Source of the DNA: Patescibacteria group bacterium
Lineage (GTDB): Bacteria > Patescibacteriota > Minisyncoccia > 2-02-FULL-40-12 > IGHO2-01-FULL-4-A
DNA: 64,000 nucleotides
Direction: 5' to 3'
Assembly: GCA_038064015.1 (NCBI GenBank)
Contig: JBBTUB010000015.1
Location: 7,093-71,092, forward strand
Shown piece by piece: positions 18,180 through 63,090 of the stretch. Positions within the stretch are counted from its first letter, which is position 1. Every line of letters starts with the position of its first letter. Below the pieces are notes generated by a model. The model saw nothing but the letters and a program-made list of their open reading frames with translations, was not told the DNA's origin and did not search any database. A program made the translations under genes and the position numbers.

Positions 18180-18182
18180 TCC

Positions 18183-36736: not shown

Positions 36737-37056
36737 TATTTTCCACGAGATATTCTTATATCGTTTTGTGTGTCGGCCTTGCAGCCGTATTTTTTTGGTT
36801 CGGTATTAATAAATTCATCCACCCTGGAACTCAGCTCATCTACATCGGAACTCAGTTTGGCTACATCCAGGGGATTTTTGAGGTCCTGATCGGGTTGAGC
36901 CTTGTAAGTGGGGTCTTTACGAGATTTTTCTCGCTCCTGGGCGTTGTACTGCTTGTCGCAATCATCGTGGTCGCGGGCTTCAATGAGATTGCGGTTCGTG
37001 ATCTGGGACTCATCGGCGGGCTCTTGGCCATCTTCTTGTGGCCCGAGCGCCGGTAA
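36733..37056 (+). CDS. small DoxX-like membrane protein
   Basis: 107 aa, 3-4 TM helices (VLCVGLAAVFFWFGINKF..., GLSLVSGVFTRFFSLLGVVLLV...). Translationally coupled to downstream DsbA-like gene. Confidence 0.4.
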   Translation: MIFSTRYSYIVLCVGLAAVFFWFGINKFIHPGTQLIYIGTQFGYIQGIFEVLIGLSLVSGVFTRFFSLLGVVLLVAIIVVAGFNEIAVRDLGLIGGLLAIFLWPERR

Positions 37057-37070
37057 GGTATACTTCGTTT

Positions 37071-37781
37071 ATGGAAATTCCCGAAACACCGCCCGCAATG
37101 TTTACTCCTCCGGTCCGTCCGCCGTGGACCTACGCCGCGCTTCCGGTAGCCTTGGTGATCGCGGCCGTACTCATCGCCGGAAGCCTCGTATACACCAAAG
37201 GAGGCCCTCAAAAAGCCAGCGGCGGCCCCAAGACAGGCACGATCAATTATACCGTCGACGATCTCAAGATCTGGGCAGGCAAAATAAAAGGCATTGATAA
37301 AAAAGCATTTGCGACATGCCTTGATTCCGATAAGTATGCGGCTCGAGTCAAGCAAGATATGGAAAGCGGCTCGGCGCTTGGTGTAGATGGCACACCGTCA
37401 TTCTTTATCAATGGCACCCCCCTGGTTGGCGCACAGCCTATTGACCAATTTCGAGCGGCGATTGAGCAAGCGAAGACAAATCCGGGAAAAAAAATCAGCC
37501 TTGGAGCAGAAGATCATATCCTCGGCATGGAGAGCGCGCCGGTGACGATTGTCGAATATAGCGATTTTCAGTGCCCGTTTTGCCGGACATTTTTTGATCA
37601 GACCTACGGCCAGCTTAAAAAAGAATACATCGACACCGGTGTCGTAAAGCTTGCCTATCGCCATTTCCCACTGGGCTTTCATGCAGCCGCTCAAAAATCA
37701 GCGGAGGCCACCGAGTGTGCCAATGATCAAGGCAAATTCTGGGAGATGCATGACGCGATATTCTCGTTGCAGGCAAAATGA
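37071..37781 (+). CDS. DsbA/BdbD-family thiol:disulfide oxidoreductase, membrane-anchored
   Basis: N-terminal TM. Thioredoxin-fold CxxC active site FQCPFCRTFF. ...GVDGTPSFFINGT... typical DsbA C-terminal motif. Confidence 0.7.
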   Translation: MEIPETPPAMFTPPVRPPWTYAALPVALVIAAVLIAGSLVYTKGGPQKASGGPKTGTINYTVDDLKIWAGKIKGIDKKAFATCLDSDKYAARVKQDMESGSALGVDGTPSFFINGTPLVGAQPIDQFRAAIEQAKTNPGKKISLGAEDHILGMESAPVTIVEYSDFQCPFCRTFFDQTYGQLKKEYIDTGVVKLAYRHFPLGFHAAAQKSAEATECANDQGKFWEMHDAIFSLQAK

Positions 37782-38824: not shown

Positions 38825-39261
38825 TTTTTCCAGAAGCGGTTTTTCTCTCGAAGATACGTCTCAGCCCAAAGCGCGAGCGTAGCGTGATGGGGTTCGGGAA
38901 GCTTGGTGAGTGGAAACCATCCGATCTCATCTACCTTGTCAGGTTCCATATTTTTTGGATTCCCTTGAGTGATTCGGCAGACGTACTGGATCGATACCCA
39001 ATGCTGCTTTTCCTCCGTAAGGAAAGTCTCATCGGTGCCAAATGCTCCCAATATCTCCACCTCAACTCCAAACTCTTCGCGAATTTCTCGACAGATTGCA
39101 TTTCGTGAGTTTTCCCCAAATTCAATAATCCCGCCAGGACGATTCCAATACCCGATCAGATTACGGCTTTTCAGGCCGCGTTTCATTAAGAGCGTCTCAT
39201 CTTTTTCATTGACGATTAGCCCTCCGACTCCGACGCCGATATAATCTACGCCCGGTTGCAT
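38821..39261 (-). CDS. NUDIX hydrolase
   Basis: Nudix box GGIIEFGENSRNAICREIREEFGVEV (Gx5Ex7REUxEExGU). Confidence 0.75.
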   Translation of the reverse strand: MQPGVDYIGVGVGGLIVNEKDETLLMKRGLKSRNLIGYWNRPGGIIEFGENSRNAICREIREEFGVEVEILGAFGTDETFLTEEKQHWVSIQYVCRITQGNPKNMEPDKVDEIGWFPLTKLPEPHHATLALWAETYLREKNRFWKN

Positions 39262-39896
39262 TAGGAAGTTTTTTTATTAAAATGTATGGATATAAGTCCA
39301 TTAATGACAATCACGATCGTGTAAAAGAAGAGGCTCATTTGCATGATGGTCGTTATCCTTGCAAGAGAACTGACGGGATAAATATCGCCATATCCGACCG
39401 TAATGTAGGTGGCAAAACTAAAGTAAAGACTATCAAGGATATGCAAGGGATGAGAAAAAGACTCCGGATTGGCAATCGAAATCATTTGATACCAAAGAGC
39501 AAAAATAAGAACGAGTTGCATGACGTTAAGAGCGAACATGACGATGAGCCATTCACCGCGTTTTTGAGGATCATGAAAAAGAGAGAAGATTCTCCCGCGG
39601 TTGAAAATAAAATTGCGTGAATACACAATCATAAATTCAAGAACACGCTGTACGAGTAGTATGCAGATGATGACGCCTAACCAATAGGGGATGTATTGGA
39701 TCGTAAGAAGAAGACCAAAACACACGAACGTGATAACGATCATCATCACCTCCAACTTAATAAAAATCCGCTCGTCTGATTTCTTAAAAAACCATTGAGC
39801 GAATGTAAAGTTTCGATTTCCCCACTCGATACATCGGCTAAACCAAGAAATAATAAAGCTATGCTCCGAATGATGATGAAGTTCTTGTACAATGTG
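39261..39896 (-). CDS. potassium channel family protein (pore loop TVGYGD)
   Basis: Selectivity filter FSFATYITVGYGDIYPVS flanked by TM helices. The longest ORF (to 39920) would overlap tRNA-Lys, so the true start is probably internal. Confidence 0.6.
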   Translation of the reverse strand, partial: HIVQELHHHSEHSFIISWFSRCIEWGNRNFTFAQWFFKKSDERIFIKLEVMMIVITFVCFGLLLTIQYIPYWLGVIICILLVQRVLEFMIVYSRNFIFNRGRIFSLFHDPQKRGEWLIVMFALNVMQLVLIFALWYQMISIANPESFSHPLHILDSLYFSFATYITVGYGDIYPVSSLARITTIMQMSLFFYTIVIVINGLISIHFNKKTS

Positions 39897-39969
39897 TGCG
39901 CCCGGTTGGAGTCGAACCAACGACCTTCTCCTTAAGAGGGAGCAGCTCTACCAACTGAGCTACGGGCGC
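39897..39969 (-). tRNA. tRNA-Lys (anticodon CUU)
   Basis: Acceptor GCGCCCG/CGGGCGC. Anticodon loop CUCUUAA. T-loop UUCGACU. G27:A43 mismatch. Confidence 0.8.
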
Positions 39970-39999: not shown

Positions 40000-40650
40000 C
40001 TATTCCAGTTCCGCTTCGATCGCGATGCGGTTTTTTGAGCTGCCGATGGGCCAGCAGGTGACGATGGCAAGAATAGGTTTCGCGTTGTTTTCTAATTCCG
40101 CAAGTCGCGCGTTACCGTCGGCTTCGAGCGGATTGAAGACGATGGACTGCTTCATACGATAGTTAAAAACTCTTCCGTCGCTGTACTTGACCGAGATGCG
40201 ATCTCCCGGCACGAGCTTGCCAATGAGCGCGCAGGGAGCGCCGTATTTGTTGTATTGCCACGGATAGAGCGAGCTGTGGCAGAGTACCGCCGAAAGACCG
40301 CCTTGGCCGGGTTTTGTGGTGGGAGAATAGTGTACCATGCCACCGGTGAGGTTTTTGTAGATGTCATCGGCATTAGCACCTACGCCAAATACGATCGGCA
40401 CCGAGACGTTTATTTTCTCGATCGTGATGGTTGCCTGATTCGGGAGTGGCTGTTGGTCAATCGTGGATACGGGCAGCAAGATGGGCTGGATCAGCGCGAG
40501 GCCGGATGCCGCAACCTTATGGTCATCCGGCTTCACGCGCTCAAACCAGTACTGCGCGTTGATATAGATCACCGGCCCGTTGACGAATACATATACCGCC
40601 ACCGCGGAGACGATGAATGCTTTGATAAAGCGAACGAGCATGGTGCTCAT
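40000..40650 (-). CDS. sortase-family transpeptidase
   Basis: N-terminal TM anchor. Catalytic His (AVLCHSS), TLxTC-like active site ILAIVTCWP, conserved Arg (KNRIAIEAEL). Confidence 0.7.
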   Translation of the reverse strand: MSTMLVRFIKAFIVSAVAVYVFVNGPVIYINAQYWFERVKPDDHKVAASGLALIQPILLPVSTIDQQPLPNQATITIEKINVSVPIVFGVGANADDIYKNLTGGMVHYSPTTKPGQGGLSAVLCHSSLYPWQYNKYGAPCALIGKLVPGDRISVKYSDGRVFNYRMKQSIVFNPLEADGNARLAELENNAKPILAIVTCWPIGSSKNRIAIEAELE

Positions 40651-40659: not shown

Positions 40660-43600
40660 TTATACCACGAAGTTAAACTTGTTCTTGTTCGCTTTTGCTT
40701 TTCCTACGATGCTCCACGCTTCATGCTTGCGGAAGAATCCGGTTTGCGTGTAGGCCATATAGCCAAGTGCGAGGGCGACGGTCAAGGCGAGTGAGAGTGC
40801 CACCGTACTGCCGGCACCGGTCTTGGGATCGGCGATGCCCACGAGCACGGAGCCATTATGGACTTTGATCGGAAGATCGTCGTGGATTTCGCCGATATTA
40901 TCTGCTCTTGTGTAGGCGACGTTGGTCATCGGGGTCACGCCTTTGGCAAAGTAGTCGGCATACTTGACGACTGCGTTGAATCGTACGATTGCTTCCTGAT
41001 TGGGCGCGAGTGAACCGATGTTAATGCCACCGCTGATGATGCCATCGGCGACCAAGTTGCCATTGAGGCTCGTGGTGTTATTGATGTACTGCAAGCCGTG
41101 TGGCAAGGTATCGCGTACGATCACGTTGTTCGCGGTGACCGAAGAGGTATTGCGAACGCGGATAAAGAAGTCTAGCGTATCACCGGGAGCGGCCTTCAGG
41201 GAGTTCTGCTCATTGATTTCTCCTTTGCTGACATTGCGACCCGTCTTGTGGATCGTGAGGCCGTAGCTCGGGGTGCTGTTGACGTAGACCGTGCAGGTCG
41301 CGTAGCCGTGCGCATTGTCAGATACGCTGATCGCGTAGGTGCCCGCTGCGTTGAAGCTCGTTGAGAATGAGCTTCCGGTGCCGCTGGTGCGCGTGCTATT
41401 GGCGGCATACCAGGAGTATGTTCCCGTGCCATTGTGGGCATTGAGGTACACAGTTTGGTACACGTTGGCGTACTGATAGGAAGGCGTGCAGTAAAGCTGC
41501 GACGTTTGCCGAGTGACATGGATCTGCGCGGTATCGTAGATTTGTGTGATGCCATCCGCGCGAGCGTAGCCATAGTTGGTAAGGGTGAGTGTGTTGTTGC
41601 TGAATTGGGCGCTATCGGAAACTTGCGCTCGGAAGATGATGGTTTTCGTCTGGCCGGGAGTCAGCGTGTTGATGTTGATCCCGCTGGTCGTAATCCCATC
41701 GCCGTAGTTGACGCCATCAACTTTAGTAGATCCACTCAGATACGTAACGTACGGAGGCAACGTGTCGGAGACGATCACGTTGTTGATGTTCGCACTGCCG
41801 GTATTGGTCACGCGAAGCATGAACTCTACCATATCCTGCGGCTGGGCATTGACTGACTCCGCTTCGCCATATCCGCGCGTGATGTTTGAAACACGCTTGC
41901 TGATTGAGAGCTGGCCCTGGTTGGGCTGGACATAGACTGAGCAGGTGTCGCTTTGATTGCCGCTGGTGACTGTAACGATCTTGGTGCCGGTGCTCCCGTA
42001 GGTCGTGCTAAAGCTTGAGCCGGTATTGCCGGAAGGATTGCCGGTGGGTGCTGACCAGCTGTAGGTGCCATTTCCGCCGGTTGCGGAGAAACTGACATAC
42101 TGATTCATGTTTATATTTTGGTTCGAGGGACTGCATACCACGACTGGAGTGTTTTTGGTTACTAAGACTGATGCCTGGGCACTCAAGGTCGAGGTGCCAT
42201 CTGCGCGCGCGTAGGCCGTATTAACGAGCGTCTCGGTACCAATACTGAATTGACTATCGCCAGCGACTTGAGCGCGGAAGCGAATTTCCCGAGTCTGGCC
42301 GGAAACCGTCGTATTGATGTTGATGCCGCCATTGACGAAGTTATCGCTGGCAGTCGAGCCATCAACCGTTACTGAGCCACTGATGAAGTTGAGGCGGCCG
42401 GGAAGCGTATCGCTCACAAAGGTATTGGTCGCGCTGCCGGTGCCGCTGTTGGTTACTCGGATGACAAACTCAACCGTATTGCCGGGAATAGCAGTAACCG
42501 ACGTCGCTTCTCCGGAGTTTTGGGTTACATTGAGAACACGCTTTGAGATGCTCAATGACGGAGTAAGGTCGGTGTGGCTTTGCACTTTGTCAAACGCGGC
42601 GCATACTGCGGTGAGACTATTGTGGCTTGAATTGTCAGGATGCGCGGCATGTGCCGGAATGATCGTCGAGACCGCTGAGCCGAGCACGAGGGCGGTGTTC
42701 ACGATATCATTGCGAACATAGCTCTGGTTTTGAGGAATGTCTCTGCTCGCATTGGTGCGGGCAACCATGTTGCCATTGCTGCCTTTCAGTTCAAGATAGT
42801 ACTGTTCACGCTGTTGGTTTTCCTGATTCGGGTGATCGTCAAAAGACTCCAGCGTTACCCGGTAGGTGCCGGCGGGAAGCGAGGCATGTGCGTTCTCTTG
42901 CGTGCGGCGTCCGGCGCCGGACTTTGAGCTCATCCAGACGTTGTTGGGATCGTTGATGCCGTTGTGAAACTTGACGAGCGTGCGGCTCTCGTAGCCCGCA
43001 GGTGTCGCTGGCCCAAGGTTGCAGTTCAATGAGGTGAGATCGGTATTTGGAGTAGGACGAGGGGTCGGAGTGGGAGTGGCGATTACTTCAGGGGCGACAA
43101 CACGAACCTTAAACGTAATGTAGCGGAGGTGTTCGTAACAGCCCTGTTGATTGCCTAAGTTGATGGTTTCGTGATTGCCGATGGAACGGGTTGTTCCCAC
43201 CTGGCTAAGATCATCCCGCAGGATTCGCAACGTGCCGGGAATGATTTCCAGGGTTTCATCTGCACTGGTTTTAAAAAGATATCCGCCGCTGATCTTGGAA
43301 GCGTTGTCAGCCTTCGCATCAACGTAGACGCCGTGGCTTGTGCCCGTGCCGGCATCCGTGCGAATTTCCACTCGGACATTTTTAGCGGTCGTGATGCCGT
43401 CGATTCCCGTATCGAGGGCGCCATTATGCACATAGATGCGTACGGTACCTTCTTGGCCGGCATGGAGTGTCGTGCCTTGCTCAAGCTGGGCATCGCTCAT
43501 GGGGTATGAGCCGCCATCAGCTTTTCCTGAAACCAGGGGATAGTCGCCACAAGCATCTGAACCCGTGTAGTCAACCGGGAAAGGATTTAAGCGTGCCCCA

Positions 43601-43770
43601 TTTTTATAGGTGGTGCAATCCGTCGCGGATACGTTGCTGGGCGTCGACAGCGCCAAGCCAAAAGCCACTCCTGCGAGAGCTACTGCTACGACTGCGAGAC
43701 TCACTTTCATATTGCGAATACTCATACTATTTTTTCGGTATTCCAGGCCCATTACCTCCGGAATACACAA
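40660..43770 (-). CDS. large cell-surface protein with three DUF11 (TIGR01451 conserved repeat) domains and C-terminal sorting-signal-like anchor
   Basis: 1036 aa. Signal peptide. Three repeats of ...V(T/R)N(S/T)GxxxxxNxxVxDTLPxxLxxxxGSxxVDG. PTPTP linker. C-terminal IADPKTGAGS + hydrophobic helix + basic tail (RKHEAW...KAKANKNK). Confidence 0.7.
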   Translation of the reverse strand: MCIPEVMGLEYRKNSMSIRNMKVSLAVVAVALAGVAFGLALSTPSNVSATDCTTYKNGARLNPFPVDYTGSDACGDYPLVSGKADGGSYPMSDAQLEQGTTLHAGQEGTVRIYVHNGALDTGIDGITTAKNVRVEIRTDAGTGTSHGVYVDAKADNASKISGGYLFKTSADETLEIIPGTLRILRDDLSQVGTTRSIGNHETINLGNQQGCYEHLRYITFKVRVVAPEVIATPTPTPRPTPNTDLTSLNCNLGPATPAGYESRTLVKFHNGINDPNNVWMSSKSGAGRRTQENAHASLPAGTYRVTLESFDDHPNQENQQREQYYLELKGSNGNMVARTNASRDIPQNQSYVRNDIVNTALVLGSAVSTIIPAHAAHPDNSSHNSLTAVCAAFDKVQSHTDLTPSLSISKRVLNVTQNSGEATSVTAIPGNTVEFVIRVTNSGTGSATNTFVSDTLPGRLNFISGSVTVDGSTASDNFVNGGININTTVSGQTREIRFRAQVAGDSQFSIGTETLVNTAYARADGTSTLSAQASVLVTKNTPVVVCSPSNQNINMNQYVSFSATGGNGTYSWSAPTGNPSGNTGSSFSTTYGSTGTKIVTVTSGNQSDTCSVYVQPNQGQLSISKRVSNITRGYGEAESVNAQPQDMVEFMLRVTNTGSANINNVIVSDTLPPYVTYLSGSTKVDGVNYGDGITTSGININTLTPGQTKTIIFRAQVSDSAQFSNNTLTLTNYGYARADGITQIYDTAQIHVTRQTSQLYCTPSYQYANVYQTVYLNAHNGTGTYSWYAANSTRTSGTGSSFSTSFNAAGTYAISVSDNAHGYATCTVYVNSTPSYGLTIHKTGRNVSKGEINEQNSLKAAPGDTLDFFIRVRNTSSVTANNVIVRDTLPHGLQYINNTTSLNGNLVADGIISGGINIGSLAPNQEAIVRFNAVVKYADYFAKGVTPMTNVAYTRADNIGEIHDDLPIKVHNGSVLVGIADPKTGAGSTVALSLALTVALALGYMAYTQTGFFRKHEAWSIVGKAKANKNKFNFVV

Positions 43771-43901
43771 TTAATTATTTTTTGTTCTCCGACGAACACG
43801 ACTGATGCTTTTCTTGAGAACCAATCGTGTTGGTCTGAAATTGTTGTTGGGGGCAGGTGGGAGGAGGACGCGGTGGTCGCTCCCACCTGCGCTCCCGAGG
43901 A

Positions 43902-44678
43902 CTAGATGTTGTTCCCTTGAACTCGGCTCTGATTCTGCTTGTGGGCCTGGCCGTTCAGGATGATGCCGAGCACGGTGCCGGCGCCCCCCACGATCGGGAT
44001 CCCGATGCAGACCTTCTTGTGGCGTCCGCACCAGGAGCGCTTCTTGACCACGACGGGTGGCGTCGCTGGACACGTCGGACAGGTGGGACAGTTCGGGCAG
44101 GACTCCTTCACGATCCGCTCCACCTCCTTCGTAACGATCCTTTCGACAGTTTGAGGTGGGGGAAGGTAGGCATCACCCGCTGTTACCTTGTTGCCGCACC
44201 GGTCGACCACGAGGATGTTGCAAAGTTTACCGCGGTCGGGGAGCTCTGAGCAGGACGACTCCTTGACGTGGACTGCTTCTCCTGGCTTCAAGGTCACAAC
44301 CGTAGAGTTGCAGTGGGCATCGAGGAACGAGACCACTGCAGGCTTCACGAGGTGGACGCCGAGTTGGCCGGGTTGTTGCCAGCTTGCGAGGAACCCTCGC
44401 TTGCTCTGGGGGTTGGATCGGATGATCTTGTCCGAGTCCTGATCCCGCATGTCTTTGCTGTTCTTGATGCACAGTGCCGGAATTTCCGTAGACCGATTGT
44501 AGTAGTCGGGCGTGGGTAAGTCGGTATTGAGCTCACAACGGCAGGGGCTTCCAGCACTCGTTGTCTCACTCGTGTCCTTTGGTGCTGCCGCCTTGGTGGG
44601 CGGGGCGACCACGACCACGAATAGGAGTTCGAGCAATGCCGCGAGAAGAAGACGACGCAAACGGAGACTGAGCATCAT
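43902..44678 (-). CDS. hypothetical secreted Cys-rich protein with C-terminal TM; GC-rich, probably horizontally acquired
   Basis: 258 aa. Signal peptide (LLLAALLELLFVVVVA), CPNCPTCPTCP motif, C-terminal helix VCIGIPIVGGAGTVLGIIL. Local GC and GC3 clearly higher than flanks. Confidence 0.5.
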   Translation of the reverse strand: MMLSLRLRRLLLAALLELLFVVVVAPPTKAAAPKDTSETTSAGSPCRCELNTDLPTPDYYNRSTEIPALCIKNSKDMRDQDSDKIIRSNPQSKRGFLASWQQPGQLGVHLVKPAVVSFLDAHCNSTVVTLKPGEAVHVKESSCSELPDRGKLCNILVVDRCGNKVTAGDAYLPPPQTVERIVTKEVERIVKESCPNCPTCPTCPATPPVVVKKRSWCGRHKKVCIGIPIVGGAGTVLGIILNGQAHKQNQSRVQGNNI

Positions 44679-44880
44679 GGCAACGGCCTTTTTTCCTGGT
44701 TCGGAGTTGACTGATCTGAGTTTTGAAGAACACTATTTTTGCCTGCACTTGCCGACAAATAGCTATAACCGATCCGGTTCCAGCTATCTGCGGGTAAATA
44801 AATAGCCTCTTTCAGGCTGAACGTACTATACACCACTGGAAAATTAAAGTCAAGTGTGGTAGGGTAAATGGTGAATCCAC

Positions 44881-44952
44881 GCGCCCGTGGTGAAATGGAT
44901 ATCACGACAGGCTTCGAACCTGTTGTTCCAAGTTCGAGTCTTGGCGGGCGCA
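44881..44952 (+). tRNA. tRNA-Arg (anticodon UCG)
   Basis: Acceptor GCGCCCG/CGGGCGC. Anticodon loop CUUCGAA. T-loop UUCGAGU. Confidence 0.8.
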
Positions 44953-45004
44953 CTTCGGTCTGGTGACCTCAGCACTTCCTCGCTCTCGCTCGGTCGCACC
45001 TAGC

Positions 45005-45035
45005 AAAAAACCTTCCCCAAGTGGGAAGGTTTTTT
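45005..45035. terminator. bidirectional rho-independent terminator
   Basis: aaaaaaccttcccc-aagt-gggaaggttttttgttttt: perfect hairpin flanked by A-run and T-run, between tRNA-Arg (+) and the 3D-domain gene (-). Confidence 0.65.
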
Positions 45036-45039
45036 GTTT

Positions 45040-45597
45040 TTAGGATCCGAGAACTTCGATACGTACCGTGCGGCGGCCCCAATTGATCGCGTCGGGCTTA
45101 TGCTCAAACCATACGTCAACGCGATCAGAGAAGCGTCTTGCCATGCGGTCATGGACGACGAAGACCTTGTCACCATAATAGTCGGGGATTCTAATTTCCG
45201 TACCAAAGGGTAAGAAGTTTGCAGCAACCATACCCCAATATACGCGTGAGCCGTCAGCGGCGATAAACGGCGTGCTGTCAGTTTGCGCCTCTTCGGAGTT
45301 GTATCCGGTAGAAGTTACAAACATTTCCCGGGCGACGGCGAGTGTCGCGCCGCGGACTGCCTGAATGGCGGGCGCCGCGGATTGTACCGGAGCGTAGTGC
45401 GCCACGAGGAAATTATCCTGGACGATCACCGCTTTGCCAGTCTCGGTGAACTCAATGACGCCTGATTGTGTAGCCGTGACATAGGGTTGCTGGCTCGCAG
45501 AAGCAATTGACTCATCTTCTTGGGCCGCGAGAACGATACCAGTAAACGTGAGAGAGATAATCTTCGCGGCGATAAAGGCTTTCTTAAACGTAGTCAT
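45040..45597 (-). CDS. secreted 3D-domain protein (MltA/YocH-like cell-wall-binding domain)
   Basis: Signal peptide. ...TSTGYNSEEAQTDSTPFIAADGSRV...VAANFLPFGTEIRIPDYYGDKVFVVHDRMARRFSDRVDVWF resembles the 3D domain with conserved Asp residues. Confidence 0.6.
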   Translation of the reverse strand: MTTFKKAFIAAKIISLTFTGIVLAAQEDESIASASQQPYVTATQSGVIEFTETGKAVIVQDNFLVAHYAPVQSAAPAIQAVRGATLAVAREMFVTSTGYNSEEAQTDSTPFIAADGSRVYWGMVAANFLPFGTEIRIPDYYGDKVFVVHDRMARRFSDRVDVWFEHKPDAINWGRRTVRIEVLGS

Positions 45598-46678: not shown

Positions 46679-47350
46679 TTACACTTTGGGATTATAGAGC
46701 ATCCCCTGGTAAATTTCAATCCATTTCAATAGTTTTTCTTTAAGTTTTCGGCTATGGATCAAAATCATACATGATCCTGAAGAGAATCGCTTCGTGGTCT
46801 TGGCACGCTTAATGATAATAGATTTCTGGAATAACGCAGCTGGAATTCCTAAAAGTTTCGCCCACGTGCTTTTTTGGACGGAATCAATCAAGTCAGGATA
46901 GAGAATGAGGCGCATCTTTATCTGTTCCTCGTTGGCAAGCTCATTGGTTAGCAGAAACGAGCGAAATGCCCGAATCATTTCATGATCGTTGCTCGTGAAG
47001 CGAACTTGGCTGTTTGCGGACGAAGTATCCCCTCGTGTCCAGTAGAGCACGATGCCCGCAAGAAAACGGGCTTGTTTGCTCAGTTCAAGAAAATCTTTTA
47101 TTGCCTCGGTGCGATATTGGTTATGCACACCCTGCCAGTATCGGCGTACAGCTTTAGGAAGTTGTCTGGCTCGGACTTTCGCTTCTTGCGCCGCTTGCGA
47201 AGTGCGCTGCGTACGGACTTTTTGAGACCACGTTTCTTGAGAAAACCAAGAACTGAGCGTACTTTTAGGAACTCCAAATTTCTTGCTAATTTCCGTATAG
47301 CTTTTTCCGGCCTCGCGCATTTCCTTGGCTTTTTGACGCTCTTTTCTCAT
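46679..47350 (-). CDS. HTH-domain protein, possibly mobile-element/homing-endonuclease related
   Basis: N-terminal HTH (GKSYTEISKKFGVPKSTLSSW). Downstream FLAGIVLYWTRGD is only weakly LAGLIDADG-like. Lies between tRNA-Gly and tRNA-Phe. Confidence 0.4.
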   Translation of the reverse strand: MRKERQKAKEMREAGKSYTEISKKFGVPKSTLSSWFSQETWSQKVRTQRTSQAAQEAKVRARQLPKAVRRYWQGVHNQYRTEAIKDFLELSKQARFLAGIVLYWTRGDTSSANSQVRFTSNDHEMIRAFRSFLLTNELANEEQIKMRLILYPDLIDSVQKSTWAKLLGIPAALFQKSIIIKRAKTTKRFSSGSCMILIHSRKLKEKLLKWIEIYQGMLYNPKV

Positions 47351-47765: not shown

Positions 47766-48212
47766 CTATTTTAGGAGGTCAAAGTATTCTTTGAGAGCTT
47801 GGAATGTGGCGCTGCCATCATCGAGTTTCGAGTAGTCATCTTTAGTCACCCATTCGTAGCCCGAGTGTTCGTAACTTAATCTCACTTCACCGGATTTGTA
47901 GGCACATTGAAATCCAACATTATACACGAGCATTCCCGGGGTTCTGGATCTGGCTCCCAGTTTTCGAAAGTAGATACAGAAAGGCTTGCCGATCTCAATC
48001 TCCAATCCGCATTCTTCTCGGACTTCTCGCCGAAGTGATTCAAAAAAATTAACTCCGTCATCTTCCTGAATTCTTCCTCCAGGCAAATCGATATAATTTG
48101 ACTCTCCAGCTTCGGAGTCAGAATCTTTGCCATGAAGCACTAATAACTTTCCAGCCTTATCAATAAACGCCTTCTGACCTACGAAGAAGAGTTGATTTTC
48201 AGTTTCGGCCAT
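47766..48212 (-). CDS. NUDIX hydrolase
   Basis: Nudix box GGRIQEDDGVNFFESLRREVREECGLEI. Followed on its strand by two tandem hairpins (cccgac..gtcggg) acting as a terminator. Confidence 0.75.
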   Translation of the reverse strand: MAETENQLFFVGQKAFIDKAGKLLVLHGKDSDSEAGESNYIDLPGGRIQEDDGVNFFESLRREVREECGLEIEIGKPFCIYFRKLGARSRTPGMLVYNVGFQCAYKSGEVRLSYEHSGYEWVTKDDYSKLDDGSATFQALKEYFDLLK

Positions 48213-48262
48213 ATATTAATAGGTTAGCATCTCAAGAGGGGCAAGATCGTAGGCTTTACTGA

Positions 48263-48802
48263 TTATGGTGATACCTCTTTTTTGGGATGTCTATATATTT
48301 TGTAGCCAATGAATAAAATTAATAGGACGATTATTAGAAAGGGCGTTACTGGTCCGAGAAAAAATAAGATATTGAAAAGAAGAATGTCTTTTTGACCTTC
48401 TGATAGCAAACTCGTGTTACTGCAGAGACTTACCGACAAATCACCATTATCTGTGTAGGCGTACACCATGTATTCTCCGCCCTTTTGAAACTCATAACCA
48501 CAACTGACCTCGCTTGAGGCGGTAGTAATGGTTATTTTTTTGTCATGAACGCCCTTGTATGATTTATAAACTTCAAAGCTTACCTTTACCGGATCCATGC
48601 TGCTGGTTATAGGTTTTGACCAGGTGACTTCAGTAACGCGGCCAGAAAAAATGTCATCATAGCCAAAATAAGAGAAAATTGCCGGTCGTGGTTGCATACA
48701 GGAGCATGCATACGCGGTAGGAATTTTGAAAGTAGCAAATAAAACAAAAGAACTTGCCAGAGTTACTAAGCCAAGTTTTGTAAGTTGTTTCAAGCGATTC
48801 AT
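48263..48802 (-). CDS. hypothetical membrane-anchored protein (N-terminal signal/lipobox-like, C-terminal TM)
   Basis: Start taken at MNRLKQ to avoid tRNA-Leu. LVTLASSFVLFATFKIPTAYAC signal. C-terminal helix ILLFNILFFLGPVTPFLIIVLLILFIGY. Confidence 0.4.
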   Translation of the reverse strand: MNRLKQLTKLGLVTLASSFVLFATFKIPTAYACSCMQPRPAIFSYFGYDDIFSGRVTEVTWSKPITSSMDPVKVSFEVYKSYKGVHDKKITITTASSEVSCGYEFQKGGEYMVYAYTDNGDLSVSLCSNTSLLSEGQKDILLFNILFFLGPVTPFLIIVLLILFIGYKIYRHPKKEVSP

Positions 48803-48805
48803 TTG

Positions 48806-48890
48806 TGCGGGCGAGAGGATTCGAACCTCCATAGGGTTGCCCCTGCTACCACCTCAAGGTAGTGCGTCTAGCCAATTTCGCCACGCCCGC
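48806..48890 (-). tRNA. tRNA-Leu (anticodon GAG), long variable arm
   Basis: Acceptor GCGGGCG/CGCCCGC. Anticodon loop UUGAGGU. 15-nt variable arm. T-loop UUCGAAU. Confidence 0.8.
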
Positions 48891-48897
48891 ATATTTC

Positions 48898-49548
48898 TCA
48901 AAAGAACTTCATTCCAATAGCTTTCTCGATTTTCAATCGTTTCCGTGATAGACAAACAACCCGCTTATCATAATACATTTTTGGCAGTAATTGCAATGAT
49001 TCACCCTTGGCGTACTTGAGCTGATAGGCAGTTCCTTTTCCGCCTTTGCCCGTAAGATGGCCAGAGACTCCAGTATGGAGCTTTATTGTTTCTCTAAGCC
49101 ATTGAATATGCTTGAGGCTGGCCGATACAAACACCGTGTAGAACATGAAGCTTGATCGCCATCGTGGATCCATGTATGAATAAAATGATCCATCTCCATC
49201 AAAGCAACCGCGCAAGAAATCAAAAAAGTATTCTTCGGGAATTTTAAGTGCTCCCATCGTTTTCGACTTTGCAGGCGTCAAACCAATCTCCATCAGATAA
49301 CGATAAAAGAGCACGTCTCCGAACTGAACATGAAAATATTTTTTCTCTTCGGAATATCCCCGAGATTTTTTGCCAATTTTCACCGTGAGTCCCAGACAAT
49401 CAACAAAGTTGTTGGCTTGCTCGATGTCTTTCGTAGTTAGACTCAAATGCCTCCCGTCATTGTAAAGACATCCATCAGTAGTTATGAGGCCTATCGCGTA
49501 GGCGAATTTAGGAGACCATTCTATTTTGATCGTACCTAACGGTCTCAT
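48898..49548 (-). CDS. double-motif LAGLIDADG homing endonuclease, free-standing
   Basis: Motif 1 YAIGLITTDGCL and motif 2 FLRGCFDGDGSF about 100 aa apart. 216 aa. Located between tRNA-Leu and rplS. Confidence 0.75.
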   Translation of the reverse strand: MRPLGTIKIEWSPKFAYAIGLITTDGCLYNDGRHLSLTTKDIEQANNFVDCLGLTVKIGKKSRGYSEEKKYFHVQFGDVLFYRYLMEIGLTPAKSKTMGALKIPEEYFFDFLRGCFDGDGSFYSYMDPRWRSSFMFYTVFVSASLKHIQWLRETIKLHTGVSGHLTGKGGKGTAYQLKYAKGESLQLLPKMYYDKRVVCLSRKRLKIEKAIGMKFF

Positions 49549-49996: not shown

Positions 49997-50712
49997 AGCT
50001 TTGCTATCGTATCTGATTTTAGGAAATTCGTCAATTCATCGGGCATGTCCGCCTCAAGCGTCATGGCTTGGCCCTGCTGGGTCGTAAATGAAAGTTGCTT
50101 GGCATGGAGAAACAGCCGGCCAAGCTCGGGAGGGCACGTGCGAGACTTCTCGGCATAGATCGGGTCGCAGACGATGGGGTGGCCGATGGAGCGCAGATGG
50201 ATGCGGATCTGATGAGTACGGCCGGTCTTTGGGGAGACCTCGAGGAGAGTATAGTTCTCGAAGCGCTCGAGCACTCGATACTCGGTCAGTGCTGCGCGCT
50301 CGTGCGTCTTGCCTTCGCGGGGAGGGCGCATGCTTTGGCGGGTGCCGAACTTGAAGAGTGGCGCGTCGATAATCCCCTGATCATTTTTTACCGATCCATA
50401 AACAAGAGCAGCATATTTTTTAGTAATCAGACGATCATGAAAGAGGTGCTTATAGTAGACAAACGCCTCTTGGTTTTTGACCAGCAAGAGCAAACCTGAG
50501 GTTTCTTTGTCGATGCGGTGGACGATGCCGGGGCGGGTTAAATCCTCTCCGACTTCTTTTGCCTCGGGGTATTTCTCTAAAAACCACGACAGCACGCTTG
50601 GCCGCTGATCATCTTTGTTGCGAGGATGCGTCAGAAGTCCGGAGGGCTTGTTGATGACGACAAAGTCAGGGGAGTCGTAGACGGTGGATGGGTTATTTAA
50701 TGAAGGATTCAA
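49993..50712 (-). CDS. RluA-family pseudouridine synthase
   Basis: Catalytic motif [19 protein letters not shown] (HRLDxxTSG). Confidence 0.85.
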
Positions 50713-51040
50713 TGGTTTTTCTCAACTCTCGATTCGCAATTTCAGTAATACTTCTTTGACCCGCGGCAATATCTTGAAGCCTAGTAATCGCATCCGTAAC
50801 ATCCTTGCGATCGTCAGGAGACATTACAGGATCAGAAACGACAGCCTCTCGTAACTTGAATGTTAGTTCGGCTAAATTTTCTATATTTAATAGCCATGTC
50901 AGGTTTTTCTCGATTATTTCATGAACCAAAAACTCTCCTCGCATGAGCGTTCTTTGCTCACCAGAAACTTTGGAGTCGGCGTTGTTGAGTATTCTTTTGC
51001 GGGCTTCATCACCGAAGGCTTCTCTACCAGTTGTCATAGT
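50693..51040 (-). CDS. hypothetical protein
   Basis: ORF start trimmed to MTTGREAF (ATG at 51040) because the longer N-terminus overlaps a tRNA remnant. No motifs recognised. Confidence 0.35.
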   Translation of the reverse strand, partial: TMTTGREAFGDEARKRILNNADSKVSGEQRTLMRGEFLVHEIIEKNLTWLLNIENLAELTFKLREAVVSDPVMSPDDRKDVTDAITRLQDIAAGQRSITEIANRELRKTIESFIK

Positions 51041-51060
51041 GCGCGCTGAGGGATTCGGCT
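51041..51060 (-). repeat. tRNA-Val 3'-end remnant (20-nt exact copy of the T-arm/acceptor 3' half of tRNA-Val(UAC))
   Basis: agtgcgcgctgagggattcg at 51041-51060 is identical to 51183-51202. The remnant does not fold into a full cloverleaf. Confidence 0.5.
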
Positions 51061-51185
51061 TCGACTCTCGGCTCGCCGTCGCTCGCCTCGGTCTAGCCAC
51101 CGCCTCGCGTTATGATGTACTCATCATAACATGCTCCGGCGTTCTCATCCCTCCGCACGTCACGCCGGTGACGTGCTCATCGCAG

Positions 51186-53158: not shown

Positions 53159-54350
53159 CTAATTGCTTGGAGATGGTCAAAAGCATTTTATGATCTTTGG
53201 GATCAAGAGAAACGATGGCGACCGGAATCTGGGCGCCAACTTTGACGACTTCTGAAGGTTTTTTATTATCAAATTCCGCCAATGGCACAAGGCCGGTGAT
53301 TTCTTCGTCGAGGCTTACCAGGGCGCCATAGTTGGTCAGTTTCACCACTTTGCCCGTCAGATTCTGACCGACGCTGTATCGCTCGGGAGCCTTTTCCCAC
53401 GGGTCGGTTTTGAGCGCTTTGAGCGAAAGTGAAACCTTGCCACCTTCAATACTGATAATCTTCGCCGACACCGCTTGTCCGCTGGCCAAGAAATCACGAG
53501 GATTGTCGATGATTTTCCAGTCAATCTCCGAAATATGGATTAAGCCTTCAAGCTTGGTGGTCGAGGCCGCTTCTTTTGGCTTCAAAAGTACGAATGCTCC
53601 AAAGTCGGTGACGTCCGTGATCGTGCCTTCGACAATCTCGCCGAGCGTAAATTTCGCGAGTTCTTCTTGAATGTTTGCTTCCCCGATCGCTTTTTCTGAA
53701 ACGATCAATCGGTTTTCATCCTCGGAAAAATCAAGGATTTTGACTTGAAACTCAGCATTGCGGAATTTTTGGAGCGCCTGGACGATCTTGGTCGTATCAC
53801 CGCCTTCGACTTTCGGATAGTGGTCGGGAGACAGCTGTGAGAGTGGCAAGAAGCCCTGGACGCCGTTGAGCTCCACAATCAACCCACCCTTATTAATATT
53901 AACGATTTTCGTCGAAATTATTTCACCTTTGTCTTTCTTTTCCTTGATATCTTCCCAGGCGGTCGTGCGCTGGGCGCGCTTGAGGGAGAGATCGCGATAG
54001 CCAAGCCCGTCTTCATCCTCAATATCAAGAAATACCGCCGAGATTTGCTGGCCGGCCTGGAGTGCTTTTTGCAACGAGGTATTGTCGTAAAATTCTCCCG
54101 GGTAGACGATGCCGGTGCCCAAGGATCCGAGGTCGATCATGACCGCGTTCTTGCTAACGCTCAAAATTTCTCCCTGGACGACACTCCCCGGCTTGGGAAG
54201 GTCGATGTCAGTTTTCGCCAGTAGGTCTTTCATAGAAAGACCGGGCTCCGTAGGTAAAATTATAGGATCCATAAGTTTCAAGAGTCTATCATGTTTTTTT
54301 TGTGCTGGCAATCCTGGTATACTGGGATCATGAAATCGTGGCACGCGCAT
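53142..54350 (-). CDS. rpsA: 30S ribosomal protein S1-like (multiple S1 RNA-binding domains)
   Basis: At least four S1-fold repeats (e.g. GSVVQGEILSVSKNAVMIDLG, GEIISTKIVNINKGGLIVEL, GEIVEGTITDVTDFGAFVLL, GQNLTGKVVKLTNYGALVSL). Confidence 0.75.
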   Translation of the reverse strand: MRVPRFHDPSIPGLPAQKKHDRLLKLMDPIILPTEPGLSMKDLLAKTDIDLPKPGSVVQGEILSVSKNAVMIDLGSLGTGIVYPGEFYDNTSLQKALQAGQQISAVFLDIEDEDGLGYRDLSLKRAQRTTAWEDIKEKKDKGEIISTKIVNINKGGLIVELNGVQGFLPLSQLSPDHYPKVEGGDTTKIVQALQKFRNAEFQVKILDFSEDENRLIVSEKAIGEANIQEELAKFTLGEIVEGTITDVTDFGAFVLLKPKEAASTTKLEGLIHISEIDWKIIDNPRDFLASGQAVSAKIISIEGGKVSLSLKALKTDPWEKAPERYSVGQNLTGKVVKLTNYGALVSLDEEITGLVPLAEFDNKKPSEVVKVGAQIPVAIVSLDPKDHKMLLTISKQLDEVTS

Positions 54351-55181
54351 CTCTTGCGTACCGAGGTGATGGTTTTTTTGCTGGGGTTGGCGATTTTCGC
54401 CGAGATTGCCTTTCTCGCAGCTGTTTTTGTGGTGCTTCCGGAGTCAGGATTTCTCGCGCTGATCGCTCCCGATGCTTTGACCCGATCGGCAAACGCGGCA
54501 CGGCAAGACACTCAAAGCCCCGTACTGATTACCAATCCGCTCCTTACCAAAGCTGCCCAGCTCAAAGCCAATGACATGGCTACCAAAAGCTATTTCGCTC
54601 ATACGAGTCCGGCGGGTGTTACCCCCTGGTATTGGCTTGATCAGGTTGGGTATCGCTATAGCAGTGCGGGAGAGAATCTCGCGGTTGATTTTATCGACTC
54701 AAGCGACGTGCACCAGGCGTGGATGAATTCTCCCGGCCACCGCGCGAATATTCTCAATGCCGGATATACCGAAATCGGCATCGCGACGGCCACGGGGATT
54801 TATAAAGGCCACGAGACTGTTTTTGCGGTGCAGTTTTTTGGGAAACCCCGTAATACAACATCCGATAGCGGCTCTGCGAGCCGCATCGCGAAGCAGTCGG
54901 ATGTTGATATACGGGGAAACCCCGTGTTCTCGTTCTCGGTCGCTCAAGCGGAGGAATCCGGTGCTGCGGCAACGCTTGCCGCAAGCCCTCGAAAAGTCAC
55001 AAATTACGGCTTTGCCGTTGTCGGCATCTTGATCGTATTGGCGCTGGGGTTGACCATCCTCATCCGCATGGAACTTCCTCACCCTCAAAAAGCTATTTTG
55101 CCCATGGCAACGATTGCGATCATCATCTCGTTTATTCTGATCAATCACAAGATCGCTCTGGCAGGGCTGCAGATTCTTTGA
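54330..55181 (+). CDS. CAP/SCP/PR-1 domain protein (YkwD-like), membrane-anchored at both ends
   Basis: CAP motifs HTSPAGV...GENLA...WMNSPGHRANIL...YTEIGIA. N-terminal and C-terminal hydrophobic helices. Start taken at MKSWHAH (ATG 54330). Confidence 0.6.
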   Translation: MKSWHAHLLRTEVMVFLLGLAIFAEIAFLAAVFVVLPESGFLALIAPDALTRSANAARQDTQSPVLITNPLLTKAAQLKANDMATKSYFAHTSPAGVTPWYWLDQVGYRYSSAGENLAVDFIDSSDVHQAWMNSPGHRANILNAGYTEIGIATATGIYKGHETVFAVQFFGKPRNTTSDSGSASRIAKQSDVDIRGNPVFSFSVAQAEESGAAATLAASPRKVTNYGFAVVGILIVLALGLTILIRMELPHPQKAILPMATIAIIISFILINHKIALAGLQIL

Positions 55182-55191
55182 ATGTAAAAGG

Positions 55192-55821
55192 CTATTCTGG
55201 TTTTCCGAGATTCACCCACGTAGTATTCCAGATCCACGAATTGCCGTCCTTATCGAGCAATGCGGTGTGATGCCACTGGACAATATCATCAGCCGCAATC
55301 GGGGCATCAAAACTTTCCTCGCGAACCCATGTTTTTGAGTTGAAGTACCGGTACCAGGCGTCGCCCTTGTTGGTCAGGACATGGATCACATTCCAGTCGC
55401 CGTCAACGAAGGCGATATCCCCGCCGCCGGTAATGCCTTGCGGGCCCTGCGGTCCGGCATCGCCTTTTTCGCCACGTTCGCCCTGATCACCCGTAGCGCC
55501 CTTCTCGCCTTTAGTACCTTGGGTTCCGCTAGCCCCTTTTTCACCGGCAACACCCTTATCGCCCTTGAGACCCTGCGGTCCGGTAGCGCCTCGGTCTCCC
55601 TTAGGACCCTGCGCGCCTTGCGCATTCCAACTCAAAAGGGCATCGTTTTTTGTGCACTTTGCCGCCGTGAAGCCGTTCTTACCTACCACAACTGCCGTCC
55701 CATTTTTTCGGATGCACACACTGATCGTGCTATCCGCTGCGCGAGCGTGGTGAAAAGCCGCGATGCCTCCGACTGCCAATATACCACCACTTAACAGTCC
55801 AATAAGAAAATATTTTTTCAT
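55192..55821 (-). CDS. secreted collagen-like triple-helix repeat protein
   Basis: Signal peptide. About 23 uninterrupted G-X-Y triplets (GAQGPKGDRGATGPQGLKGDKG...GPQGPQGITGG). C-terminal globular domain. Confidence 0.7.
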   Translation of the reverse strand: MKKYFLIGLLSGGILAVGGIAAFHHARAADSTISVCIRKNGTAVVVGKNGFTAAKCTKNDALLSWNAQGAQGPKGDRGATGPQGLKGDKGVAGEKGASGTQGTKGEKGATGDQGERGEKGDAGPQGPQGITGGGDIAFVDGDWNVIHVLTNKGDAWYRYFNSKTWVREESFDAPIAADDIVQWHHTALLDKDGNSWIWNTTWVNLGKPE

Positions 55822-61773: not shown

Positions 61774-63090
61774 ATGGATCGGCGCAAACTTATCTACATC
61801 ATCGGGGGAGTGCTCGGAGGAATCCTACTCCTCGTACTTTTTTTTGTGCTGGTGGGTGGTGATGCGCCGAAGGCTCAAAAAGCCAATCTTGCCATGTGGG
61901 GGCCGTTTGATGAGCCGAGCTACTACGCTCAGGTTATCCGCGACTACCGAAAAGTAAATCCCAATATAAGTGTCACCTACACTCAGATTCCCGCCCAGGA
62001 CTATGAACAGCGCCTTATTAGCGCGTTTGCTGCCGGCAACGGCCCTGACATCTGGTTGATGCACAATACTTGGCTGCCCAAGCATCAGGATAAGATCCAG
62101 CCGTTGCCTACCAAAATTAAGGGTGTGAAAGAGCCACTATTTACTTTCAAGAATTTTCAAGATCAATTTGTTGATGTTGCAGTGGCAGATCTCACGAGAG
62201 GGGAAACTATATACGCCCTGCCGCTCTATATTGATACCTTGGCCCTTTACTACAACAAAGATCTTTTTAATACCGCGGGAATTGCTACGCCACCTCGGAC
62301 GTGGGAAGACTTTGTTCGAAATGTTCCCCTCCTGACCTCACGTGATACTGCTGACAATATTGTCCGGTCCGCCGCGGCGATCGGGACCTCCAAAAACATC
62401 AATCGCTCTACCGATATACTCATGCTCCTCATGCTCCAAAGCGGAGTACGTATGACCGATAAAGATAATGCCGGAGCAACTTTTGCAAAACAGGTGGACG
62501 GGCTTAATGTAGGAGAGTTGGCAGTGCAATTTTATACTGACTTTGCCAATCTATCCAAGCCTGACCGCTACACCTGGAACGATCGGCAAAAGTACTCGAT
62601 CGATGCGTTTGCCGATGGGAATACCGCGATGATGCTCAACTACTCTCATCACATCCAAACGCTGCGAGCCAAAGCGCCCCGATTAAATTTTGGCATTGCC
62701 CCGGTCCCTCAGCCCGAGAAAGCGACTATTGGGGTTAATTTTGCCAATTACTGGGCGCCTACGGTAGCAAAGCAGTCAAATTATGGTCTCGAAGCGTGGC
62801 AGTTTCTTATCTATTTGTCGGGTACCGACGGAGCTATTTCCTATCTCGATGCTTCTCTTCGTCCCACGGCTCGGCGCGACTTGATCGAGCGACAAAAAAA
62901 TGACGCAGATCTTGGCACGTTTGCTCACCAAGCGCTCACGGCGCGATCGTGGTACCAAGTGGACAATGTCTCGATTGAGACGCTTTTTGCCAAGCTGATC
63001 GATGATGTGAATTTCAATCGGGCCACGATCCGAGACGCGCTCAAGGAAGCGGAGTCACAAGTGAGTGTCATCATGAGTAAATCGCCATGA
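61774..63090 (+). CDS. extracellular solute-binding protein (ABC transporter substrate-binding, family 1-like), TM-anchored
   Basis: N-terminal TM. ...LAMWGPFDEPSYYAQVIRDYRKVNPNISVTY... typical sugar-type SBP N-terminus. Confidence 0.65.
   Translation: MDRRKLIYIIGGVLGGILLLVLFFVLVGGDAPKAQKANLAMWGPFDEPSYYAQVIRDYRKVNPNISVTYTQIPAQDYEQRLISAFAAGNGPDIWLMHNTWLPKHQDKIQPLPTKIKGVKEPLFTFKNFQDQFVDVAVADLTRGETIYALPLYIDTLALYYNKDLFNTAGIATPPRTWEDFVRNVPLLTSRDTADNIVRSAAAIGTSKNINRSTDILMLLMLQSGVRMTDKDNAGATFAKQVDGLNVGELAVQFYTDFANLSKPDRYTWNDRQKYSIDAFADGNTAMMLNYSHHIQTLRAKAPRLNFGIAPVPQPEKATIGVNFANYWAPTVAKQSNYGLEAWQFLIYLSGTDGAISYLDASLRPTARRDLIERQKNDADLGTFAHQALTARSWYQVDNVSIETLFAKLIDDVNFNRATIRDALKEAESQVSVIMSKSP

Follow-up and report, generated by a model that had tools for sequence, protein, structure and literature searches.

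A predicted surface protein gene lies between tRNA-Arg and a fibrillar adhesin gene

We analyzed a 64-kb stretch of DNA from a Patescibacteria group bacterium (contig JBBTUB010000015.1; hereafter, the window) and focused on a gene at 43902-44678 on the minus strand, whose 258-amino-acid (aa) product we describe as a head-stalk-anchor protein. The surrounding interval, 43771-44952, comprises this one minus-strand gene, a 200-nt leader region and tRNA-Arg(tcg). A preliminary description had read it as a GC-rich gene for a Cys-rich secreted protein, probably of foreign origin and inserted at the tRNA. The open reading frame (ORF) has a GC content of 0.587/0.459/0.737 at codon positions 1/2/3, and this periodicity marks it as a real coding frame. 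A protein identical to its product is deposited as MEK7583148.1 from a metagenome-assembled genome (MAG) labeled "Patescibacteria group bacterium". The same protein is encoded on a contig from the 0.1-µm fraction of well H51 at the Hainich groundwater site (described in PMC8672522).

The protein starts with a signal peptide (residues 1 to ~33, with a hydrophobic signal at residues 5-28), followed by a head domain of ~125 aa (residues ~45-176) and a stalk (residues 177-221) in which a VERIVTKE/VERIVKES direct repeat precedes CPNCPTCPTCP, a hinge-like Cys-Pro repeat at residues 194-204 (44068-44100, minus strand). A Gly-rich C-terminal transmembrane (TM) helix (residues 223-241) and a weakly basic tail of 17 residues ending in QGNNI (QSRVQGNNI) complete the chain. 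The preliminary description had correctly recognized the signal peptide, the Cys-Pro motif and the TM helix, as well as the Cys richness: the 13 Cys (5.0%) are the highest fraction among all window ORFs. Inspection of the sequence revealed no LPXTG-like or TG-type sorting motif before the TM helix, so that by sequence the protein is not a sortase substrate. Altogether, this layout probably corresponds to a type-I membrane-anchored surface protein, with a signal peptide, a globular beta-rich head, an extended stalk, a TM anchor and a short tail.

Immediately downstream, and in the same orientation, lies a fibrillar adhesin gene (40660-43770). On the other side of the head-stalk-anchor gene is tRNA-Arg(tcg) (44881-44953, plus strand, detected by ARAGORN and Rfam), which is transcribed away from the gene, and across the tRNA a gene for a 3D-domain, cell-wall-binding-like protein (45040-45597, minus strand) with weak NCBIfam matches to EntA and EntB C-termini. 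A consensus scan for promoters found a TTGACT-17 nt-TATAGT site directed toward the gene (44825-44853, minus strand; 10/12 matches, a pattern match only), which would leave a leader of ~145 nt. Twelve nucleotides past the stop codon, a GC hairpin (43853-43890, minus strand; inverted repeat I8) has 11 perfect pairs, a 16-nt loop and no T tract, with a folding energy of -31.4 kcal/mol versus -14.1 ± 2.3 in shuffles. This is probably a partial terminator or an mRNA 3'-end stabilizer between the gene and the adhesin gene. A comparably strong hairpin, in several cases with a T tract, lies directly 3' of the equivalent gene in most loci examined. A hairpin at this place suggests that transcription of the head-stalk-anchor gene is stronger than that of the adhesin gene, or separate from it.

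The head defines a small family with interchangeable stalks

We searched for relatives of the protein with an exhaustive HMMER (phmmer) scan of 1.84 billion cluster representatives. This returned 13 relatives of the head (E 5e-19 to 1e-7, 32-47% identity), which align only over residues ~45-180, and a word-index homology search of 5.8 billion proteins with the full-length sequence retrieved nothing besides the protein itself. In Pfam and NCBIfam, neither the head of the window protein nor the head family had a match, Pfam Collagen in the stalks aside, and a PDB sequence-profile search gave collagen noise only. Structure comparison gave nothing significant against the PDB with Foldseek for either the full model or the head alone (best E 0.16 and 0.3), and no match in BFVD. 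The AlphaFold2 model of the head, built with the family alignment, shows a compact beta-rich domain with high confidence (predicted local distance difference test score 91.9, predicted template modeling score 0.85).

The family head of ~120 aa is characterized by the motifs DSDxIIRxNPQSxRGFxxWLQPGQ, GExVVxD and ILAVxRCxNKVxxG, which the window protein also displays. Ten columns are invariant in alignments A1 and A2 (I86, P90, G95, W100, E134, R160, C161, N163, K164 and G168 in the window protein, which has all of them), and the RCxNK motif that they include (R160-C161-x-N163-K164) directly precedes the stalk. The number of Cys in the head is odd (1, 3 or 7) in all 13 full-length members, with 7 in the window protein, so the invariant head Cys is probably unpaired within the monomer. 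For the window protein we thus infer three disulfides in the head plus the family-invariant unpaired Cys of RCxNK.

All members combine a signal peptide, the conserved head and a low-complexity stalk. In 11 of the 13 homologs, as in the window protein, a hydrophobic TM anchor preceded by K/R-x-W and followed by a short tail ends the chain; the two longest homologs, P0011 and P0014, have long low-complexity tails and no aligned hydrophobic anchor. The stalk is interchangeable: 6 of the 14 members carry Pfam Collagen (PF01391), others have (E/Q)KPV-type repeats, and the window protein has its CPxC run. No collagen repeat was detected in the window protein (no Pfam match), and the six members with PF01391 are homologs that carry it at the equivalent stalk position. 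The hosts of all named homologs are Patescibacteria: Patescibacteria group entries, one Saccharibacteria MAG and one Minisyncoccia MAG. The gene is best filed as a member of a head-stalk-anchor class of bacterial surface proteins, in which it founds a small undescribed family of Patescibacteria.

The tails show some conservation as well. A P-x-K-T-W/Y motif follows the TM helix in P0003, P0006, P0007, P0008 and P0010 (A1 columns 540-565), P0002 has the variant PTKTN, and the window tail QSRVQGNNI resembles QKPNVQGNG of P0012. A conserved tail points to a partner at the inner face of the membrane or to an unrecognized sorting signal. Elsewhere in the window, at 54291-55821, a gene of the CAP (cysteine-rich secretory protein) family adjoins one whose 209-aa product has an N-terminal anchor, Pfam Collagen repeats and a globular part at the C-terminus. 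The latter product (55192-55821) is thus a further surface protein with a collagen stalk; we considered it as a paralog and found it unrelated (hhalign probability 3%).

The gene opens a cassette with an adhesin and a sortase

In the window, the head-stalk-anchor gene, the adhesin gene and a sortase gene follow one another on the same strand (44678 to 40000). The adhesin (~1030 aa) has CLIPPER/DUF11 repeats and a PKD domain according to Pfam and NCBIfam, and its C-terminus carries the LPXTG-like sorting signal DPKTGAG, followed by a TM helix and a basic tail with KNKFNFVV. CLIPPER is an isopeptide-bonded stalk domain of fibrillar adhesins (PMC12617251). The sortase gene, third in the cassette (40000-40650, minus strand), was identified by Pfam Sortase (E 2.6e-16); in NCBIfam it falls below every class cut-off, so that none of the classes A-F can be assigned.

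The same gene is found with a CLIPPER adhesin and, where the contig is long enough, a sortase at the homolog loci L002/L003, L004/L005, L006, L007, L008/L010, L013 and L014. The sortase mostly comes after the adhesin; L004/L005 has two adhesins with the sortase upstream. The adhesins of these cassettes are orthologous. They have the motif NPFPV-Y-G-x-C-x-D-Y/F-P in common at the N-terminus, their sorting signal reads xxTG[AG]G, and the C-terminus of several is KNKFNF[VI]. The cassette also occurs in distant Patescibacteria where no tRNA is adjacent. This shows that the head-stalk-anchor gene is the first gene of a surface cassette across Patescibacteria. Among the homolog loci long enough to judge, L012 is the only exception: here (2215-3189 and 5031-7521), P0014, a protein of 528 aa with a very long Gly/Asn/Ser-rich tail, is not followed by an adhesin. 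The L012 contig is Patescibacteria-like and a sharp compositional mosaic, in which GC-rich ORFs (~0.60) are patchworked among genes of 0.33-0.41 GC.

The strict linkage of the three genes suggests that their products function together in a structure for surface attachment. A literature search combining CLIPPER/DUF11, Patescibacteria and sortase returned the CLIPPER paper and nothing on this cassette. In the sortase-dependent adhesin and pilus loci of Gram-positive bacteria, substrate genes cluster with their sortase, and the cassette resembles them in that its CLIPPER/DUF11 adhesin with a TG sorting signal is encoded beside a sortase. It differs in that the window protein is by sequence neither a sortase substrate nor a recognizable pilin, and in that the sortase cannot be assigned to any of the classes A-F. 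We know of no described sortase locus with a conserved accessory membrane protein of the head-stalk-anchor kind.

Slot content between tRNA-Arg and the adhesin gene varies among relatives

We further investigated what lies at this position in related genomes. As a probe we used the 3D-domain gene across the tRNA, a choice that is blind to the target; the relatives that it retrieved are 55-70% identical in the 3D protein, and their 3D genes are labeled "3D domain-containing protein" in the source records. Together with L006, these amount to six independent loci, in all of which the 3D gene is accompanied by tRNA-Arg(tcg) on the opposite strand, a slot and a CLIPPER adhesin. The position and orientation of the tRNA are kept in L006, L015, L016, L017, L019 and L020. 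The content of the slot is not: one locus has the same head, two have other heads, one has unrelated genes and two have no ORF.

The locus with the same head is L006 (3D protein 45% identical), whose head is 41% identical to that of the window protein and has the same six extra Cys, with an apparent frameshift near the signal peptide. L015 (3D 70%) encodes a 229-aa protein whose head is not recognized by the family hidden Markov model. Its stalk, pre-TM motif, TM helix and tail match the window protein (CPECPTCQVCP, FWCFRSWKHGLVC and QGNDIN versus CPNCPTCPTCP, RSWCGRHKKVC and QGNNI; BLASTP 33% over 76 aa, E 2e-5, with hhalign also used). L018 (3D 55%) has a 260-aa protein of the same plan, in which no homology to the head family was detectable.

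The remaining slots hold no such protein. In L016 (3D 69%), the slot is empty and the adhesin lacks its first ~240 residues, starting at the equivalent of residue ~236 of the window adhesin (459-4436); an rve-type transposase gene lies just upstream of the 3D gene, and the empty slot may be a deletion linked to a mobile element. L019 and L020 (3D 55%) have 600 nt without an ORF in the slot. In both, a small GIY-YIG endonuclease gene (2077-2322 in L019) abuts the 3' end of tRNA-Arg, which is the side expected for tRNA-targeted insertions. In L017 (3D 56%), the slot contains genes for a clan-AA (DTGF) aspartic-protease-like protein and a DUF5678 protein on the other strand, in addition to a GC-rich 93-aa ORF. 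The pair overlaps (7139-7781) and looks like a two-gene selfish or toxin-antitoxin-like module.

Compared with the window, the flanking proteins of these loci are 45-70% (3D), 34-62% (adhesin) and 42-67% (sortase) identical, and the slot content varies as described. The slot therefore evolves far faster than its flanks, by replacement, loss or both. The preliminary description had named orthologs at syntenic positions in all relatives as the finding that would speak against a foreign gene; we found a recognizable ortholog in L006 only. We favor the view that this slot is old and hypervariable and that its heads are replaced or lost much faster than the flanks diverge.

GC-richness recurs in the slot

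The preliminary description had rested its case on elevated GC content overall and at third codon positions (GC3). With a GC of 0.595 and a GC3 of 0.74, the ORF indeed has the highest values of about 55 window ORFs, and its GC is the maximum of all 777-nt windows (mean 0.506, standard deviation 0.035), the runner-up being a stretch of 0.593 in a penicillin-binding protein gene. The between-gene deviation is modest: with a between-gene standard deviation of 0.079 in synonymous GC3, the ORF lies at z = 2.2-2.3 among 51 ORFs, a value that the largest of 51 normal draws reaches with a probability of about 0.5. Nor is its codon usage alien. In a principal component analysis of relative synonymous codon usage (RSCU), where axis 1 tracks GC3 (r = 0.92), the ORF has a z of 1.0 on axis 1, is unremarkable on axes 2 and 3, and clusters with the native high-GC3 genes gyrA, L19, FtsH, sortase and adhesin. 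Its third-position C fraction (0.44) equals that of its neighbors, and only the G fraction is higher.

The lowest GC3 values of the window (0.36-0.46 versus a mean of 0.55) belong to ORFs at 39261-39920 and 47766-49548, and also 46679-47350 and 50693-51100, which include a LAGLIDADG-like ORF, a helix-turn-helix protein and hypothetical proteins. These deviate more than the head-stalk-anchor gene does, toward low GC3, and make better candidates for DNA of foreign or mobile origin.

Across the syntenic loci, every ORF that we called in the slot is GC-rich, with a GC3 of 0.69-0.77 versus 0.41-0.75 in the flanks. GC and GC3 are 0.60/0.74 in the window, against 0.54/0.59 for the 3D gene and 0.54/0.64 for the adhesin gene. 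They are 0.59/0.69 in L006 (flanks 0.42-0.45/0.41-0.43), 0.59/0.77 in L018 (flanks 0.48-0.51/0.47-0.60), 0.63/0.76 for the 93-aa ORF of L017 (flanks 0.53/0.59-0.65), and 0.65/0.77 in L015, a GC-rich genome (flanks 0.59-0.61/0.74-0.75). The contrast is much stronger in L006 and L018 than in the window, and the GC-rich block of L006 has sharp edges that coincide with the gene. Because the excess recurs, and is stronger in relatives, the GC signal belongs to the slot or to this class of genes and not to a single recent insertion.

Three causes may underlie this signal. GC-richer relatives, such as the L015 lineage, may have contributed DNA repeatedly by import or recombination; the slot may be a recombination hotspot with GC-biased gene conversion; or codons may be selected for high expression. 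Third-position G and C are both raised by 0.1-0.15 over the flanks in L006 and L018, which fits import, recombination or GC-biased conversion better than codon selection. Most likely, the GC-richness arose through recurrent allelic replacement or recombination among related lineages, perhaps with a contribution of high-expression codon bias. Judged from these sequences, the turnover of the slot and its distinct composition would be compatible with exchange among related lineages.

The neighboring tRNA does not mark an integrated island

A gene of deviating composition beside a tRNA, with content that varies among relatives, recalls the tRNA-associated genomic islands. Islands left by tRNA-targeting integrases lie on the 3' side of the tRNA. 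Here, the ORF lies at lower coordinates and adjoins tRNA-Arg by its 5' end. The 3'-terminal 21 nt of tRNA-Arg, with up to 3 mismatches, occur in the window only in the tRNA itself and in the T-arm of tRNA-Val, and the only short repeat between the flanks (43600-45200) is of 12 nt at an 83% match, which is at chance level. The att-like repeats of the tRNA 3' end, for which the preliminary description had suggested a search, are thus not there in any relevant form. Pfam annotation of the neighbors revealed no integrase, and the ORF is the sole gene between the tRNA and the adhesin gene. A tblastn search of phages and plasmids with the protein found no homolog. No part of the region or ORF is repeated in the 64-kb window by blastn. 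We also considered the ORF as the target of a diversity-generating retroelement and rejected this, given the lack of an ORF repeat in the window and of a reverse transcriptase among the Pfam annotations of its ORFs.

Because 10 tRNAs lie within the 64 kb, adjacency to one of them is by itself uninformative. Since six independent related loci keep the order 3D gene, tRNA-Arg, slot and adhesin gene, the adjacency is, from sequence comparison, ancestral. Unlike tRNA-associated islands, what lies here is a single gene on the 5' side of the tRNA, without an integrase or repeats of the tRNA 3' end, in an old syntenic block, and a one-off tRNA-targeted insertion is not supported. Of the preliminary description, the flanking tRNA-Arg(UCG) stands and the insertion does not; as for foreign origin, neither the codon usage nor any trace of integration bears it out, and what survives is that the content of the slot turns over and is compositionally distinct. 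The strong bidirectional terminator that it had placed beside the gene also exists, but beyond the tRNA: the only canonical one (45004-45036, no strand; inverted repeat I3, terminator scan), with 14-bp perfect arms and A6 and T6 flanks, lies between tRNA-Arg and the convergent 3D-domain gene, outside the interval. More generally, a GC deviation and a nearby tRNA are insufficient to call an integrated island.

Alternative origins of the gene

Three other accounts of the gene can be weighed against an old slot with replaceable heads. That the ORF is a random open frame in a GC-rich remnant between genes, or a pseudogene decaying there, would agree with the many long spurious ORFs that GC-rich DNA yields, several of which overlap 43902-44678 in other frames, and with the apparent frameshift of the L006 ortholog. 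Yet the frame has a strong GC3 periodicity, the head is conserved over 14 clusters with invariant residues and a confidently predicted fold, and both the architecture and the gene neighborhood are coherent and conserved; we consider this account already refuted by conservation and give it almost no weight. The origin proposed in the preliminary description, in which a GC-richer donor supplied the gene and this lineage received it as a small islet integrated at tRNA-Arg, draws on the GC and GC3 maximum of the window, on the lack of any close homolog besides the protein itself among 5.8 billion proteins, on an RSCU correlation with native high-GC3 genes of 0.64 (versus 0.76-0.89 for native genes) and on the absence of the gene from several syntenic relatives. 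It has to contend with the position on the 5' side of the tRNA and the missing att repeat, integrase, phage homolog and plasmid homolog. In addition, the L006 ortholog sits at the same place and has diverged like the flanks (41% versus 27-45%), all homologs of named organisms are Patescibacteria and belong to the same adhesin and sortase cassette, and the gene, with a GC3 of only z 2.2 (P about 0.5 for the maximum of 51), sits in the native codon-usage cluster. The tRNA-integration mechanism is largely refuted, and we regard the islet as a whole as improbable.

The most serious contender is a native, vertically inherited gene, whose GC3 would reflect expression-related codon bias and a Pro/Gly/Ala/Arg-rich composition, and whose differences between loci would stem from fast divergence under diversifying selection, with no exchange. 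GC3 in the window is highest in core genes that are likely well expressed (0.69 in both L19 and gyrA), with which the ORF clusters; C-ending codons dominate as in its neighbors; a promoter-like site and a hairpin of its own fit high, separate expression; and the head of L015 retains faint family-like motifs. The joint rise of G and C at third positions in L006 and L018 looks, however, more mutational or recombinational than translational, and the slots of L016, L017 and L019, which have no such ORF or unrelated genes, represent real gain and loss. A different head on a stalk and anchor of the window type in L015 suggests module shuffling, and distant family members have no GC excess. We therefore hold strictly vertical descent to be unlikely, though with an appreciable share of the probability.

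Several observations count against the old, hypervariable slot and the surface protein that we propose to occupy it. The GC excess of the gene is statistically unremarkable within the window, and distant family members at other positions (L002, L007 and L008) lack one. Replacement of heads is indistinguishable from extreme divergence, the motif-like remnants in the L015 head being IGRNPVVKGG and VVIDCGNP. The syntenic loci are short metagenomic contigs, one of which, L006, has the apparent frameshift. With no T tract on the window hairpin, separate transcription of the gene is uncertain. At the protein level, the basic stretch KKRSWCGRHKK lies outside the membrane in the predicted topology, an unusual charge distribution, and we infer from the domain plan and the gene neighborhood that the protein is displayed at the surface, oligomerizes via the CPxC run and cooperates with the adhesin.

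Other features of the window

The window probably spans the replication origin region: dnaA and dnaN lie at 22811-25407, and just upstream of them the opposite strand carries yidC and an R3H (Jag-like) gene. A type-IV-secretion-like cluster at 12574-19783 encodes a PrgI-family protein, a VirB4/TraG-type ATPase and several large hypothetical proteins; a separate protein with a type IV secretion system pilin domain (63087-63983) has 4.7% Cys, and a PilB gene also lies within the window. At 6950-7960, a LOG-family (Lysine_decarbox) gene lies between tRNA-Ile(gat) and tRNA-Ala(tgc). This pair of tRNAs usually sits in rRNA spacers; Rfam detected only tRNAs and no rRNA over the whole window. Near the pair, ORFs 1561-3135 and 5299-6888 have no Pfam match and no GC3 periodicity, and may not be genes.

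Discussion

We propose the following mode of action. The protein would be exported, its signal cleaved, and the chain anchored by the C-terminal helix with the head facing outward. The stalk would act as an oligomerizing spacer, for which the collagen triple-helix repeats of relatives would imply a trimer; parallel trimers are established for bacterial collagen-like proteins. In the window protein, the CPxCPxCPxCP run may cross-link parallel chains by disulfides, which could be formed by the DsbA encoded ~6 kb from the gene (37038-37781). Immunoglobulin hinges use such a run as an interchain disulfide module (CPPCP in IgG1, repeated CPRCP in IgG3). The likeness, a short Cys-Pro-x-Cys-Pro run that separates a globular domain from the remaining chain and is seen in both the window protein and L015, is an analogy only, with no homology implied, and interchain disulfides in the bacterial protein are a prediction.

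Closer parallels are Scl1 and Scl2 of Streptococcus and BclA of Bacillus, in which an N-terminal or terminal globular head on a trimeric collagen-like stalk is tethered to the cell surface. Their signal peptide, variable globular head, stalk and surface tether recur here, and 6 of the 14 family members have a collagen stalk. The differences lie in the anchor, a TM helix with a conserved tail in place of an LPXTG wall anchor, in the CPxC run that the window protein has instead of collagen, and in the head, for which no sequence or fold relation to any PDB entry was detectable.

Together with the adhesin and the sortase, the protein may serve to attach the cell surface, probably to that of a host or partner cell. 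A bolder and doubtful extension would make it a membrane-tethered dock: the sortase would join the TG signal of the adhesin to the Lys of RCxNK, or the invariant Cys would form a disulfide to the adhesin, so that the fibril stands on an oligomeric membrane stalk and not on peptidoglycan, and the GC-rich heads would be alleles swapped among Patescibacteria by recombination under host or phage pressure. If true, this would amount to a sortase-dependent surface organelle of a new kind, one whose base is polymorphic.

Patescibacteria spend their lives attached to other microbes, and to our knowledge the molecules involved are largely unknown apart from type IV pili. The analysis yields a small, previously undescribed protein family, whose head is predicted with confidence and lacks a relative of known structure, and a conserved three-gene surface module of head-stalk-anchor protein, CLIPPER adhesin and sortase. 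A hypervariable, compositionally odd slot at a fixed chromosomal landmark is the pattern expected of a specificity determinant facing hosts or phages, and the genes described here are concrete candidates for attachment studies in cultivable Saccharibacteria.

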